Shown here: positions 4,912 through 10,538 of the stretch, piece by piece | How the letters are laid out: every line of letters starts with the position of its first letter | Numbering within the stretch: the first letter of the stretch is position 1 | Origin: a virus | Reading direction: 5' to 3' (one strand) | UHGV virus genome: UHGV-0075529 | Length of the DNA: 16,505 nucleotides | Position numbers and translations under genes: made by a program | Notes under the pieces: model-generated | Told to the model about the DNA's origin: nothing | Seen by the model: only the letters and a program-made list of their open reading frames with translations | The model's database searches: none

Positions 4912-5066
4912 GCCGCCTCCCTCTTATTGTTTAGCTCTTCCGCCAAGCGCTGGGCCTTGAGTGGGTTCTGGATGACCATGCCGCCGGGAACCACCCACCC
5001 GCGGCGTAAGTTCGAATAGACGAGCGTCACCGATCCCACGCTGATGTTGTCGTGTGCATTTTTCAT
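4908..5066 (-). CDS. Small hypothetical protein, 52 aa (not in the ORF track)
   Basis: Hand translation of the minus strand gives [52 protein letters not shown]; ATG overlaps the exo stop and its TGA overlaps the dam ATG; SD GGAGAG 8 nt upstream. The listed 84-aa ORF here is in another frame. Confidence 0.45.
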
Positions 5067-5743
5067 CGCCATTGCTCTCCGAAGGTGAAGCCAATCTCTG
5101 CCAGCGCCTCGTCCATCTTTTCGATGAACTCCGGCACCATCTCGTCGAAGTCGGCCATGTATTTTTCATCCCGCTCAACCACGACGTAATGCAGCCCCTC
5201 GCGCTTCATGCGAGGGTCGTAGTTGGCAAAGAACCAGGCTGGATTTTTGTTTACCCACATGCTGTATTGCACCTGGGCCATGTAGTCCGCTTTGATGGCA
5301 TCGAAGCCGCCGAGCCGGAACTTCATGAAGTCTCGGGAGGTGAACGGGCATTTCAGCTCGAGGCCAAATCCGTTACTGCACAGGCCGTCTGGTGAACAGG
5401 CGGTGCGCATGGTTTCATCGCGAAAGAGGATCGGTGATTCGATGACGCTCACTCCGGTCGTGAACTCAAACAGGGTGCGTGCGTCCTCTTCGTACTGCTT
5501 GCCCCAGGCAAGCGCCTTTGCATTCACCTCCGGCGCTACACCGGTGCATACCTCAGCGAGGAGGGTGTGGAAGTAGGACATCTTCATGCAAGTCCATTTG
5601 GTGCCGCTGCGCGGTTTTGAAATGACGTTATGAACCTCAGATGCGGTGATAACACCGAGGCGAAGTCGATGCCACTCCTCATCACCCTGTTCGATTCTGG
5701 TCACATCAATGCCGGTTCGCGCCAGGATGATTTCTGGTGTCAT
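5063..5743 (-). CDS. exo: Lambda-type 5'-3' exonuclease (Red-alpha / YqaJ family)
   Basis: 226 aa, near-collinear with lambda Exo as recalled ([14 protein letters not shown]..., [32 protein letters not shown]-terminal FGEQWR). Confidence 0.9.
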
Positions 5744-6669
5744 GCGGCAGCCCTCTGCTTGAGGAAACCAAGAGCCTTGACGGCCTCTATCTCAGTGAGA
5801 TCGCCAGACTCCAGAATGTCGCGCTTGAAGATACGGCGGCACAGAGGGAGAAGGTCCTCATCCCATGTTTTGTTCATGGCGATCAGGAGGTCGTTTATCT
5901 CTTTCAGCGTGTCGAGGCTGGCCGGGGTAATATCGCGCTCTGGCTGGCGCTCTGCAGCAAAGTTGATACCCTCCTCGCCCTCAGTGTTGACGTGGTCGAT
6001 AGCGGCATCCAGACGTTCGCGTCGCGGCCAGTATTTGGTTGCCTGCTTCACGACTGTCTTGAGGATCATCTGCTCTTCGTCCGTCACCCATGGACACTTC
6101 TTGCTGCTGTCCTGCTTGTACTTCTTCCAGGCTTCCGAACGGTCACGGATCGCGAAGATATCCGCTATGCGCATGGTATGGGTGAGATAGTCGCCGTCGT
6201 CAGTTTTAACCACGACATACGCCCCAACAATCTCACCGCGCTGCTCTGCGGTGTCGAAGTCGTTGTAGATGTGAATGGGTGGCTTATCTAGCCCCTCACG
6301 GCGGAACTGGTCGTTCTTCCGCACGATTGCAGACTGGCACCACTTAATTGCACCAGATTGCTGGGCGATGTGCATCAACCCCATGTAGCTAATATCGAGG
6401 CAGATAGCACCTTTTCGCGGCACAAGATAAGCAAGTTTCTGCGCCGGGTTCAGCGATATCCCGATTCCTGAAATATTCATCAGGGCGCTACGGGTGCTAG
6501 TCGGGTTGGAGAGAGCGATTTTCGCCAGGTAGTCATTGTTGGCGAAGATCTGCATGGCGAACTCAGATTCGCGCTTGAATTGAATGGACGGTTCGGCGCA
6601 AACCTGCTCGAACTCCGCCTTGAGTGGGTTAATCAGGTTGAATACCTGATCTGTAAGCAGGCCAGCCAT
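5740..6669 (-). CDS. recT: RecT-family single-strand annealing protein
   Basis: 309 aa directly upstream of exo with ATGA coupling; sequence pattern consistent with the RecT family; SD AGGAGGA upstream. Confidence 0.75.
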
Positions 6670-6693: not shown

Positions 6694-6978
6694 TTAAAAC
6701 GGGCAGCCGGTGCGGTGTTCCCAGTCGTGCTCTGCCTGGGCGTAGGCCACTGCCGAAACGAAGTCGTTGTATGCCTCGGCAGCTTTATCGCTGCGAAGTC
6801 CTTCGTATGGGCTGGCGTCGATCGGCACGGAGAAGTGGAAGAGACCGGACGGCTCTTTTGGCATCATGTCGATGATTTCCTGCGCCCGGTCGTCGATCCA
6901 CTTCTCTTTCTCGTCGGTGAGCTGCTGCTCAGCCCAGCGTCGATCTTCGATGCGGTCGTAAGTGAGGAATGCGTTCAT
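6694..6978 (-). CDS. gam: Gam-like host-nuclease (RecBCD) inhibitor
   Basis: 94 aa; N-terminus MNAFLTYDRIEDRRWAEQQL resembles lambda GamS [22 protein letters not shown] as recalled; sits just upstream of the annealing protein as in lambda. Confidence 0.55.
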   Translation of the reverse strand: MNAFLTYDRIEDRRWAEQQLTDEKEKWIDDRAQEIIDMMPKEPSGLFHFSVPIDASPYEGLRSDKAAEAYNDFVSAVAYAQAEHDWEHRTGCPF

Positions 6979-6985
6979 GGTTGCC

Positions 6986-7957
6986 TCAGTAATGAATTTT
7001 CGCGCAGGGGATTAGGTCGTCTTTAAGTGCGGTGAGCACTTCGATAGCCTGTTCGCGGGTTAAGCTGGTGTGGCTGGTGAGCGCGTTAACGATGTTGGTG
7101 CCGACCGTCTTGCGGTGCTTCACGTCAGCTTCGCGCTTTGCCTGTTCATCGGCGAGGCGCTTCTCTTCGGCCAGGCGAGCATCTTCGGCCTGTTTTGCCT
7201 TGTGGCGCTCAGCTTCCACTGCCGCAGCTTTTTCTCTTTCCGCCCGGGCTTCTGCTTCCTTCTTCTCGCGTGTCGCACGCTGTTCCGCTTCAATGCGCTG
7301 GCGTTCCGCCAGCTCTGCACGCGCTTTCTCTTCAGCTTCACGGCGCGCTGCGGCTTCAATTTCTGCTTTGTGCTTCGCTTCGGCATCGCGTCGGGCTTGC
7401 TCTGCCGCTTCACTCTTAATGCGCTCTTCATGCTCACGTTGAGCCTGTTCCGCCAGGCGGCGCTGCTCTTCGCGGTCCCGGTCAAAATCCTTATTCATCA
7501 GCAGAGCCATTTCGTGGTCCGCTTCGAACTGAATAGCCCGCTGCAAATCGATGCTCTCGTTCATCACCAGTGCTTCGGCGTGCATCGCGTTCATGGCTTC
7601 TTCAGCCTTAATACGTTCCTGCTCGGCTTCCCATTCGGTAAGTGGGCGCCGTACTTCATCCTTCAGCGCGTCCAGCCTCTCACGCACAATGCGGCGGCTT
7701 TCGTCGATCTGCTTCGGCAGGGCTTTAAGCTCGGCAACCAGATCCTTGCCGGCGTTGTCGATATAGGTTTTGGAGCGGGCAACCTTATGCGCCATGGATG
7801 CGATCGCGTCGCGGCCTTTGCGGGTCGACACATCCGGTACCAGGCTGCGAGCTTCTTTCTCGATCGCCTCAATAATAGGGTCGAGCTGCTCTTTGGTGGT
7901 GAATACCGCCATTGCGTTCTGTTTCTCAATGACGACTAAATCCGTTACTTCGCTCAT
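6986..7957 (-). CDS. Low-complexity coiled-coil protein, 323 aa (Ala/Glu/Arg/Lys-rich centre)
   Basis: Uninterrupted ORF with strong SD (AGGAGA); central ~150 aa is a charged repeat (EAEQRATREKKEAEARAEREKAAAVEAERHKAKQ...) between non-repetitive termini. Confidence 0.7.
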   Translation of the reverse strand: MSEVTDLVVIEKQNAMAVFTTKEQLDPIIEAIEKEARSLVPDVSTRKGRDAIASMAHKVARSKTYIDNAGKDLVAELKALPKQIDESRRIVRERLDALKDEVRRPLTEWEAEQERIKAEEAMNAMHAEALVMNESIDLQRAIQFEADHEMALLMNKDFDRDREEQRRLAEQAQREHEERIKSEAAEQARRDAEAKHKAEIEAAARREAEEKARAELAERQRIEAEQRATREKKEAEARAEREKAAAVEAERHKAKQAEDARLAEEKRLADEQAKREADVKHRKTVGTNIVNALTSHTSLTREQAIEVLTALKDDLIPCAKIHY

Positions 7958-8025
7958 GGTTTCTCCTGAAATTTGGATGTGCAGATGCCGCCCGCATAAG
8001 CCAGGCCGATCGGTTGAATAGGGGG

Positions 8026-8166
8026 TTAGGCTGTTTTTCTATGCCACGGATAACCGATGGCGACCTTCATTTCGTCGTAGGCTGCCATCCACATGGCGCC
8101 ATCACCGATAAACAGGGCAATGGCTGCTTTACTCTGCGCTGCGCGCAGCAGGTGATGATTGATCAT
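8026..8166 (-). CDS. kil: Kil-like small peptide, 46 aa (candidate cell-division inhibitor; not in the ORF track)
   Basis: Hand translation: MINHHLLRAAQSKAAIALFIGDGAMWMAAYDEMKVAIGYPWHRKTA; ATG overlaps the stop of the upstream small ORF; the ALFIGDGAMW segment resembles lambda Kil as I recall it (unverified). Confidence 0.4.
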   Translation of the reverse strand: MINHHLLRAAQSKAAIALFIGDGAMWMAAYDEMKVAIGYPWHRKTA

Positions 8167-8321
8167 GCCTTCACCTCAACCTGTTTCATGAGGCCAGCGA
8201 TATTCATCTGTTGGCGGTTCAGCGTCAGCTTGTCGCGCGGTGCCGATACCGACGTCAACTGCCACTCGTTATCGTTGAGTTTTTTGGCGGTGTACTGCTT
8301 GCCGTTGTGGGTGACTGTCAT
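8163..8321 (-). CDS. Small hypothetical protein, 52 aa (not in the ORF track)
   Basis: Hand translation: MTVTHNGKQYTAKKLNDNEWQLTSVSAPRDKLTLNRQQMNIAGLMKQVEVKA; strong SD GGAGGAATC directly upstream; ATGA overlaps at both ends. Confidence 0.45.
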   Translation of the reverse strand: MTVTHNGKQYTAKKLNDNEWQLTSVSAPRDKLTLNRQQMNIAGLMKQVEVKA

Positions 8322-8557
8322 GATTCCTCCCGAGCGCGGAGCATTGCGTCAGCTATCTGGTACGCTTCGGTTGCCGTGCGGTCATCGCTACACAACCAGT
8401 CAGGATTGGCTAATCGACCCTGCATAGCCTTGGCCGCGAAGTAATCGCGTAGGGTCATGCCGCCAGAGCTGACTTCGAAACCATGTAAGTGACCAACTTC
8501 GTCGCGCTCCACGATAGAATCACACGGGAAAGCGCGCCCTCCAGTTTTGTTGCTCAT
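8318..8557 (-). CDS. Hypothetical phage protein, 79 aa
   Basis: ORF with SD AAGAGGG upstream of ATG 8557; first gene after the leftward terminator. Confidence 0.6.
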   Translation of the reverse strand: MSNKTGGRAFPCDSIVERDEVGHLHGFEVSSGGMTLRDYFAAKAMQGRLANPDWLCSDDRTATEAYQIADAMLRAREES

Positions 8558-9510: not shown

Positions 9511-10188
9511 TTATGGGATGTTTAGTATTTTGGCATCAACCACAACGCCGATGATTTTGCAGTTTCCATTAATTTCTAGCATTGGATATGCGGGGTTAAG
9601 GGGCTTTAGGAAGCGTCTGCCGGCATCGATTACAAGCTTCTTAAAGGTCGCTTCGTTATCGCCTTCTAGCTTCGCGACAACCAGCTTTCCGTTGCGCGGC
9701 TCGACTTCAGGATCAACAAGTATCGCTGCTCCCTCGGGTATGCTCAGTCCAGCCGGGGAGGTCATAGAATCCCCTTTAACGTCCAGCCAGAATGAATCTT
9801 CTGAGCAGTCAACAGTCGTGTCATACCAGCGATCTATCGCTCTTCGGTGATAAGGTTCTACAGCTTCCATCCATTGCCCCGCGCTTACCCAGCTGATTAC
9901 AGGATAACTTCCTTTTGTCTCGTTCAGTCCTCGAAATGCAACGTTCGAAGGTTCTTCACTGGCGTGTAAAACATCCATCCAGCCAAAAGGCAGATCAAGC
10001 GCAGTTTCAATTTTGCGAGCCATCTTATCGCCGATATTGCGATGAGGGTTTGGTCCCAGTAGCTGGCTAAGCGCAGCCGGACTTGTCTCGATGAGCTCGG
10101 CAAACTGCGCTTTGGTCATTCCAGACTCGTGCTGACGCTTCTCGTACAGCGCTTCCAGGTTGGCTTTTCTGATTTCTTTATTTTCCAT
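9511..10188 (-). CDS. cI: cI-type prophage repressor (N-terminal HTH, C-terminal S24 LexA-like autopeptidase)
   Basis: Start taken at ATG 10188 (MENKEIRKANLEA...); C-terminal domain has the catalytic Ser in GDSM, a downstream Lys, and an Ala-Gly candidate cleavage site (SWVSAGQW). The ORF track runs to 10305 across the operators. Confidence 0.88.
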   Translation of the reverse strand: MENKEIRKANLEALYEKRQHESGMTKAQFAELIETSPAALSQLLGPNPHRNIGDKMARKIETALDLPFGWMDVLHASEEPSNVAFRGLNETKGSYPVISWVSAGQWMEAVEPYHRRAIDRWYDTTVDCSEDSFWLDVKGDSMTSPAGLSIPEGAAILVDPEVEPRNGKLVVAKLEGDNEATFKKLVIDAGRRFLKPLNPAYPMLEINGNCKIIGVVVDAKILNIP

Positions 10189-10304
10189 ACCTGCATTGTT
10201 ACTGCTTTTAGCAAAATGATAAATATGCAAATTGCTAAATGATGCTTGCGTAGTATTTAGCATAACGCTAAACTCCAAATCAAACGACTCACCCGGAGAC
10301 ACCA
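10189..10304. promoter_or_regulatory. OR operator triplet with divergent PRM/PR promoters
   Basis: 17-bp sites at 10207-10223 (TTTAGC-AAAAT-GATAAA), 10223-10239 (weak) and 10256-10272 (perfect TTTAGC-ATAAC-GCTAAA); PR candidate -35 TTGCGT (10246-10251), 17-bp spacer, -10 TAAACT (10269-10274). Confidence 0.7.
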
Positions 10305-10538
10305 ATGAGCACTGAACTACACCGCTGGCGCAAGGCCGCCACTACCGACGAATGGGCGCAGCTCGCAAAGTTGGCTAACACGACGCCAGGTTACCTGGAC
10401 CAGATCGCCTACGGAAATCGCCGGGCATCTCCAGAAATGGCATCTGCTATCGAGAAAGGCACGAAGAATTTTCACCGCCAGGCTCCGGTCCTAAAAGAAA
10501 GCCTGGTATTCGCATCGCCGCGTGATACTGCGGCCTAA
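10305..10538 (+). CDS. cro: Cro-like / YdaS-family HTH DNA-binding protein
   Basis: 77-aa ORF divergent from cI across the operator region; SD GGAGA 7 nt upstream; HTH-like segment EWAQLAKLANTTPGYLDQIAYGNR. Confidence 0.65.
   Translation: MSTELHRWRKAATTDEWAQLAKLANTTPGYLDQIAYGNRRASPEMASAIEKGTKNFHRQAPVLKESLVFASPRDTAA

Follow-up and report, generated by a model that had tools for sequence, protein, structure and literature searches.

What does a 323-amino acid (aa) protein, much of it built from Ala, Glu, Arg and Lys, do between a nuclease inhibitor gene and kil in the early region of a lambdoid prophage? The question is raised by the 16,505-nucleotide (nt) virus genome UHGV-0075529 (the window, here always taken at its full length), in which an open reading frame (ORF) at positions 6986-7957 of the minus strand starts at an ATG and encodes 323 aa before its stop. 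A preliminary description of the sequence had reported exactly this ORF, considered its product a large low-complexity coiled-coil protein, and remarked that lambda has no gene of this size there; indeed, to our knowledge, nothing comparable is present at this position in lambda. By sequence comparison and gene order, we identify the ORF as a full-length orthologue of agt of phage phi80, and its product as a probable adaptor or modulator that may temper the activity of the neighboring nuclease inhibitor GamL.

Among annotated phages, phi80 Agt is the closest match over the full length, with 61% identity over 323 aa (E = 1e-90). The protein is also a full-length member of phrog_1376, a family of 'unknown function' (E = 3.2e-104, residues 1-323 against profile positions 1-362). 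The GenBank record of phi80 (Lula; JX871397) gives agt (PHI80_40) the product name 'anti-toxin for Gam; Mog (modifier of Gam)', while gamL is entered there under 'host RecBCD/SbcCD enzymes inhibitor; toxic without Mog'. The gene is not new: phi80 has a named orthologue, and databases contain an identical protein under the label 'hypothetical'. In the phi80 study, gamL is reportedly the gene of this phage that is toxic to E. coli, and agt is said to be 'its own antidote, apparently encoding a modifier protein'; lysogens of phi80 are likewise said to be recD and sbcCD phenocopies. Full-text literature searches on agt together with gamL returned no match, and a survey from 2025, which covers 325 lambdoid recombination modules, refers to GamL but never to Agt, and does not place the latter among the module proteins.

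The phi80 protein is 322 aa long, against 323 aa here, and the two have a three-part architecture in common. Residues ~100-240 are ~95% identical between them, whereas the first ~100 and the last ~40 residues are far more diverged. In phi80 the gene occupies the same position as here, downstream of kil and directly upstream of gamL-recT-exo in the leftward early operon, except that kil and agt are separated there by a further ORF, of 278 aa, that is absent from the window. Identity over the full length, a gene order matching that of phi80 and a bona fide GamL neighbor together support the assignment to Agt. With an orthologue in the same place in phi80 and thousands of relatives, we could also dismiss the idea that the gene is an oddity of a single prophage.

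The family is a large one. A search with the N-terminal 160 residues, or head, retrieved 5,239 representatives of 50%-identity clusters at E <= 1e-3 (3,927 at 1e-10); the match is always N-terminal, and the proteins have a median length of 324 aa. Among the 119 full-length representatives, 110 contain an ER/K-type segment no shorter than 40 aa, and almost all share a C-terminal domain of ~45 aa. The survey of segment length proposed in the preliminary description gave a range of 30-183 aa and a median of ~120 aa, with conserved flanks. On these alignments, the three-part design defines a family of more than 5,000 50%-identity clusters for which Pfam and NCBIfam have no model. Its head domain appears in 186 records of the phage collection, from phages of Pseudomonas, Vibrio, Escherichia, Klebsiella, Erwinia, Yersinia, Acinetobacter, Aeromonas, and Shewanella. 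An 804-aa 'exodeoxyribonuclease VIII' found in the phi80 Agt cluster was examined as a candidate Agt-RecE fusion and discarded as a clustering artefact, BLASTP showing no similarity.

The head (7481-7957, minus strand; residues 1-159) is predicted to form a three-helix bundle, and its invariant, family-defining residues include F19, R49, G70, K71, K78, D85, R88, L95, P105, and E110, the 'PLTEWE' motif included. The C-terminal domain (6989-7108, minus strand; residues 284-323) ends in an aromatic tip, ...AKIHY-COOH. Over ~45 aa, its family consensus reads D.EHR..IN......L...G.....AK....AIA.G.I....I.Y; the terminal residue is Y or F in 100 of the 119 full-length representatives, and the pattern [IVLMF]x[IVLMF]x[YF]-COOH is found in 86. 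An AlphaFold2 (AF2) model computed from a 35-sequence alignment (predicted local distance difference test score, pLDDT, 86; predicted template modeling score, pTM, 0.48) places helices at residues 12-20, 22-37, 46-76, 81-296, and 301-312; a run on the single sequence was uninformative, giving essentially one long helix (pTM 0.32). The first model suggests a three-helix-bundle head (residues ~10-150), a continuous helix whose distal part is a 124-residue ER/K spacer, and a tail of ~40 residues. The preliminary description had indeed pictured a spacer flanked by non-repetitive N- and C-terminal domains: both domains are present and conserved across the family, and a long predicted helical spacer lies between them. 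Structure prediction of the termini, which it had also called for, yielded the helical head and the short helix 301-312, and fold searches returned only generic helical-bundle matches. The protein as a whole (37 kDa, acidic, with an isoelectric point of 5.6) is predicted to be soluble and all-helical, and it carries no enzymatic motif.

Between the two conserved domains lies the low-complexity segment (7109-7480, minus strand; residues 160-283, 124 aa), ~18.6 nm long if fully helical. A, E, R, and K account for 70-87% of it and hydrophobic residues for 3-10%; it is 56% charged with a net charge of 0, 24% alanine, and 7% LIVMFWY. It holds 60 opposite-charge pairs at spacings i/i+3 and i/i+4, against 38.5+-4.7 in shuffled sequences (0 of 1000 reach 60), and its charge autocorrelation has z scores of -5.6, +4.6, -2.7, and +2.9 at lags 4, 8, 12, and 16, respectively (1000 shuffles), that is, a period of 8. 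This is the signature of an ER/K single alpha-helix, and in the AF2 model the segment falls inside one unbroken helix (residues 81-296, pLDDT 71-98). A canonical coiled coil, as assumed at the outset, does not fit, because in the best register bulky hydrophobic residues (LIVMFWY) fill at most 11% of heptad a/d positions, against a background of 7%; when Ala is counted, occupancy is 40% against 32%. The segment had also been described as ~150 residues of Ala/Glu/Arg/Lys-rich periodic sequence. The richness stands, as does a periodicity of charge, but the length is 124 aa, and Tandem Repeats Finder detected no array in the segment: there is no repeat of sequence, which speaks against an origin by tandem repetition.

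ER/K single alpha-helices are well established in myosin VI, myosin X, and caldesmon. The Agt segment is similar in composition to these domains, including the lever extensions of the two myosins and engineered linkers, in its proportions of charged and bulky hydrophobic residues (~7%), and it has the same excess of opposite charges at i/i+4 and the same charge period of 8. An unbroken helix is predicted in Agt too, and the length of the segment varies while its flanks are conserved, as expected for a spacer. It is richer in alanine than the classic E4K4, and ER/K domains are a convergent sequence class in which likeness does not imply homology to Agt. Among close relatives in IMG/VR, Agt occurs in lengths of 323 or 322, 334, and 344-345 aa, i.e., in steps of ~11 residues or roughly three helical turns in the ER/K helix, with rarer lengths of 304, 312, 359, 363, and 370 aa.

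Could a sequence of this kind be no real gene at all, a frameshifted or degenerate remnant of known genes or a low-complexity assembly artefact? The several overlapping ORFs that traverse the region on both strands might suggest so. These long open frames had been pointed out before and are borne out by the ORF map (7070-7939 and 7032-7442 on the plus strand, 7120-7485 on the minus strand, and others); they are by-products of codons rich in GAR, GCN, and CGN. The annotated frame, by contrast, has ratios of non-synonymous to synonymous substitution rates (dN/dS) of 0.12 in the N-terminal part, 0.24 in the ER/K part, and 0.20 in the C-terminal part (59 homologues, 323 aa), values that indicate purifying selection on the ORF. 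The 90%-identity cluster that holds the exact protein has 573 members, from assemblies of E. coli, Enterobacter, Klebsiella, and Citrobacter, nearly all of them named 'hypothetical protein'. Selection and this cluster thus make the gene neither an artefact nor a remnant. The absence of a tandem repeat, a strong Shine-Dalgarno sequence before the start, and a length of 323 aa throughout the best 120 matches, with two exceptions (374 and 319 aa), argue in the same direction, and we give the contrary view practically no credence.

An envelope function, be it TolA-like, fibrinogen-binding, or that of a structural coiled-coil protein, is what the databases would suggest. Members of the family are labeled 'TolA', 'cell envelope biogenesis protein', 'fibrinogen binding protein', 'major outer membrane lipoprotein', or 'coil containing protein' (MT227924, NC_074662, OM046621, MN602881, KT887557, and others), and are otherwise hypothetical. 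We consider these to be mislabels caused by low-complexity similarity. Searches of Pfam, NCBIfam, and PDB, with the single protein and with the 35-member alignment, gave low-complexity matches only (TolA, Fibrinogen_BP, HA2, dynein): the weak NCBIfam TolA match covers only the charged helix and scores 18.2 bits against a cut-off of 213, and Fibrinogen_BP scores 13.7 bits against a cut-off of 50. Domain II of E. coli TolA is a similarly long Ala/Lys/Glu-rich helix, hence the transfer of the name by annotation pipelines, but the membrane anchor and the C-terminal domain of TolA are absent from Agt, which is not TolA. We found no signal peptide or transmembrane segment in Agt (maximum Kyte-Doolittle 19-residue mean 0.69) and no heptad seam, and the gene lies in the early operon, away from virion or lysis genes. 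An envelope or structural role is thus very improbable.

In the window, agt belongs to a lambdoid prophage and lies in its leftward early operon; the gene order is int, a small Dam-type methyltransferase, exo, recT, a 94-aa gamL, agt, kil, several small ORFs, and a cI-type repressor. The exo gene (5063-5743, minus strand) encodes a YqaJ or lambda-Exo-type exonuclease (PF09588, E = 1e-27) with 88% identity to phi80 Exo, and recT (5740-6669, minus strand) a RecT-type single-strand annealing protein (PF03837, E = 2.7e-28). The product of gamL (6694-6978, minus strand) is a phi80-type host nuclease inhibitor and the proposed functional partner of Agt, with 152 bits to NF033500 (phi80_GamL; cut-off 40 bits) and E = 1.3e-45 to phrog_1050; an identity as lambda Gam was rejected, the match to PF06064 reaching only 17 bits, under the cut-off of 25. 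On the other side lies kil (8026-8166, minus strand; PF06301, E = 5.6e-11), encoding an FtsZ inhibitor. The position between gam and kil given in the preliminary description is hence correct, with the reservation that the gam in question is the phi80-type gamL. GamL of the window is only 55% identical to that of phi80, the N-terminal half being conserved and the C-terminal half diverged. The comparison (with locus L001, 4977-5255) reveals a mosaic relative to phi80 GamL, in which residues 1-45 are ~85% identical and the C-terminal half is highly diverged. Two GamL subtypes, ~90% and ~56-60% identical to that of the window, occur in the IMG/VR loci, both beside the same Agt C-terminal type.

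For comparison of this locus we used two samples from related prophages: 115 distinct close-relative agt loci from IMG/VR, and 80 loci retrieved with GamL (89-95% identical to that of the window) in which Agt-family genes were sought within +-5 kb by six-frame hidden Markov model search. Counts in these samples are not independent, and the sampling of the 'best 80' favors close relatives. At the agt-gamL junction (6979-6988, minus strand; AAAATTCATTACTGAGGCAACCATG), the TGA stop of agt (6986-6988) is followed by a 7-nt spacer and by the gamL ATG at 6978. A GAGG overlaps the agt stop codon and serves as the gamL ribosome-binding site. The same 7-nt spacing is present in all 38 agt-positive gamL loci and in most of the listed agt loci. 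Translational coupling of agt and gamL is plausible, because the GAGG overlaps the agt stop only 7 nt from the gamL start.

The other junction is the conserved leader between kil and agt (7958-8025, minus strand), with the Shine-Dalgarno sequence AGGAG 5 nt before the ATG of agt. Its sequence of ~62 nt reads CCCTATTCAACCGATCGGCCTGGCTT..GCGGGCGG.ATCTGCACATCCAAATTTCAGGAG, also written CCCTATTCAACCGATCGG...ATCTGCACATCCAAATTTCAGGAG. In prophages without agt the leader abuts gamL directly, whatever the upstream gene (L167-L237): a match with 89-100% identity was found upstream of gamL in 27 of 34 tested agt-less loci; 24 of these matches cover 61-68 nt, one covers 99 nt, and two extend over no more than 21-24 nt. 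As the leader before agt matches the sequence before gamL in agt-less loci, agt is a clean presence/absence cassette, and the leader a module junction that, in these alignments, behaves like a lambdoid 'boundary sequence'. Its predicted RNA fold is no better than that of shuffled sequences (z = +1.6), a search of Rfam with the leader gave no match, and we found no terminator or promoter between kil and agt, where Sf6 has tL2A.

What lies downstream of agt varies. The next gene is gamL in 70 of the 115 loci, phrog_7311 ahead of Arf and Erf in 24, a lambda-type Gam (phrog_259) ahead of RecT and Exo in 6, cIII in 3, and another gene in 12; in total, 103 of the 115 have agt directly before a recognized recombination-region gene (GamL, lambda-type Gam, phrog_7311 heading Arf/Erf, or cIII). 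The D3-like loci of Pseudomonas are similar: 78 of 78 have an annealing-protein gene in the 3 kb downstream, which starts within 100 nt in 72 and is accompanied by an exonuclease in 77. In D3 itself, orf53 is directly upstream of erf, followed by the YqaJ exonuclease, and gene 33 of Shigella phage Sf6 is upstream of cIII, kil, Erf, SSB, and Abc2. The family gene is directly followed by Bet in PP9W2 and in Acinetobacter phage TCUAN1, by a hypothetical gene, an exonuclease, and RecT in Aeromonas phage 62AhydR11PP, and by cIII, then RecE and RecT, in Yersinia phage 29.18. Among some Vibrio relatives, recognizable recombination genes were not seen nearby. From these gene orders, what is conserved is a position at the head of recombination genes. 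An interaction with host DNA-metabolism or division machinery had been proposed: synteny and the phi80 record sustain a tie to the recombination and anti-nuclease module, whereas we found nothing that links the gene to division, and its adjacency to kil is not conserved in Sf6 and D3.

The relatives share more than their position. The N-terminal domain of Sf6 gene 33 is 54% identical to that of Agt over residues 1-160, and that of D3 orf53 52% identical over residues 5-114. Both, as well as the 'TolA' or 'coil containing' proteins of Pseudomonas, Vibrio, Yersinia, and Acinetobacter temperate phages, have an ER/K spacer and a C-terminal domain and are encoded in the early operon, as here. Unlike the window, these phages have no GamL, and the neighbors are cIII/kil/Erf/Abc2 in Sf6, Erf/YqaJ in D3, and Bet/YqaJ in PP9W2. 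Abc1 and Arf of P22 are likewise products of non-enzymatic, non-essential genes within lambdoid recombination modules, where they modulate recombination or anti-RecBCD activity; they have no sequence similarity to Agt, which is much larger and has an architecture of its own, and Agt and Arf are encoded in one module in 24 loci. In 23 of the 115 agt loci (L008, L013, L019, and others), one and the same agt-gamL pair is combined with varying annealing proteins, for example the RecT type of the window, a 253-aa protein 'MSTALSTMAGKLAARLG...', or a 286-aa protein 'MANELTITA...', with exonuclease subtypes that differ as well; this illustrates free shuffling inside the recombination module. In the 24 loci with Arf and Erf (L006, L010, L015, and others), a 65-aa protein MNITCECVDMRTSVGPHNTIKVEME... 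(phrog_7311) replaces gamL between agt and arf-erf, and could be another anti-nuclease or accessory protein.

Our preferred reading, to which we would assign a probability of roughly 0.55, is that the ORF is the agt of a phi80-like agt-gamL-recT-exo module, and that its product is a non-enzymatic adaptor or modulator acting by protein-protein contacts and tempering the inhibition of RecBCD/SbcCD by GamL. Head and tail would each bind a partner among the module proteins or the host DNA-end-processing enzymes, and the ER/K helix would be a semi-rigid spacer of ~18 nm that fixes the separation and effective concentration of these partners. In phages that carry gamL, the outcome would be a tempered inhibition of RecBCD/SbcCD, in keeping with an 'antidote' or 'modifier of Gam'. 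Several points weigh against it. No gamL is present in 45 of the 115 agt loci, nor any Agt-family gene within +-5 kb in 42 of the 80 gamL loci. Loci with and without agt cannot be told apart by their GamL proteins: five identical sequences occur in both classes, mean identity is 0.948 and 0.956 inside the agt-positive and agt-negative classes and 0.952 from one class to the other, and no GamL site shows an association with the presence of agt at p<0.001. Subtypes of the Agt N- and C-terminal domains do not covary with the presence of gamL either, the same C-type occurring 53 times with gamL and 30 times without. Since the two genes are separable and GamL is indistinguishable, modulation of GamL cannot be the only or the ancestral role of the family. 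Moreover, our data establish orthology, synteny, architecture, selection, and the distribution of the family, whereas the antidote phenotype is taken from the phi80 annotation and from what Rotman et al. 2012 (J Bacteriol 194:6802) reportedly describe; direct binding, the partners, the ruler role of the helix, and coupling to gamL are inferred. The fold-search matches are generic, and the AF2 monomer model fits a single helix and a dimeric rod alike.

The same observations bear on two other explanations. Agt could be the classical antitoxin of a two-gene agt-gamL pair, needed wherever gamL is carried. The wording of the phi80 record speaks for this, as do the upstream position of agt with a 7-nt spacing that fits translational coupling and the fact that both genes, where present, are always adjacent. 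An antitoxin is difficult to reconcile with the gamL loci that lack an Agt-family gene and have gamL joined straight to the same leader, with identical GamL in the presence and absence of agt, and with agt loci devoid of gamL. Pfam and profile searches of Agt also found no DNA-binding or autoregulatory domain, and 37 kDa is far above the typical size of an antitoxin. We regard this explanation as already disfavored, and improbable: an obligate partnership of agt with gamL is not supported, and 'modifier' fits better than a toxin-antitoxin dependency. Alternatively, Agt may be a general accessory of the annealing-protein/exonuclease machinery or of host DNA-end processing, for example one that recruits or spaces recombination proteins at DNA ends or at the replisome, the antidote effect on phi80 GamL being a side consequence. 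The variety of modules that follow agt, from GamL-RecT/Exo to Arf-Erf, lambda-type Gam-RecT-Exo, cIII, Erf-YqaJ, and Bet, is consistent with this, as are the annealing-protein genes of the D3-like loci, the cassette behavior of agt, and the independence of GamL sequence from it. The evidence is one of synteny, drawn from non-independent counts; half of the gamL-recT-exo modules have no agt, which is thus dispensable, the Vibrio relatives mentioned above form an exception, and the 2025 survey does not name Agt as a module protein. We judge this rather unlikely as an account of the gene in the window. Extended to the family, it would make Agt a general accessory of annealing-protein/exonuclease modules in temperate phages of Gammaproteobacteria, a head-ruler-tail adaptor that would act on proteins of recombination or of host DNA-end processing regardless of which anti-RecBCD protein (GamL, lambda Gam, Abc2, or none) is encoded by the phage. 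An ER/K helix of tunable length (30-183 aa) would then position the C-terminal aromatic docking tip relative to the head, and the GamL 'antidote' effect would be one manifestation; we put forward this broader view tentatively.

The remaining features of the window can be described briefly. The int gene is at 742-1932 and the cI-type repressor at 9511-10305, beyond which cII, O-like, and DnaB-like genes are found on the opposite strand. The methyltransferase gene was considered as a possible frameshifted counterpart of phi80 damL, and looks intact (183-aa ORF). Just upstream of kil, two small ORFs on the minus strand, 8163-8321 and 8318-8557, encode 52 aa (phrog_6396) and 79 aa (C-terminal part of phrog_2201). 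The former is conserved beside 44 of 82 agt loci and has 83% identity to a stretch of phi80 for which the annotation gives two antisense hypothetical genes.

The lasting value of these observations is the picture of the family itself: a head, an ER/K helix, and an aromatic-tipped tail, encoded by a cassette in front of gamL. The Agt family is among the most widespread uncharacterized genes in the early regions of lambdoid and related prophages, and our analysis exposes a systematic mis-annotation of its members as TolA or cell envelope proteins. If Agt does modulate nuclease inhibition or recombination, it would be relevant to recombineering systems built from RecT, Bet, or Erf modules, and would bear on the effects of prophages on the DNA-repair phenotypes of their hosts.

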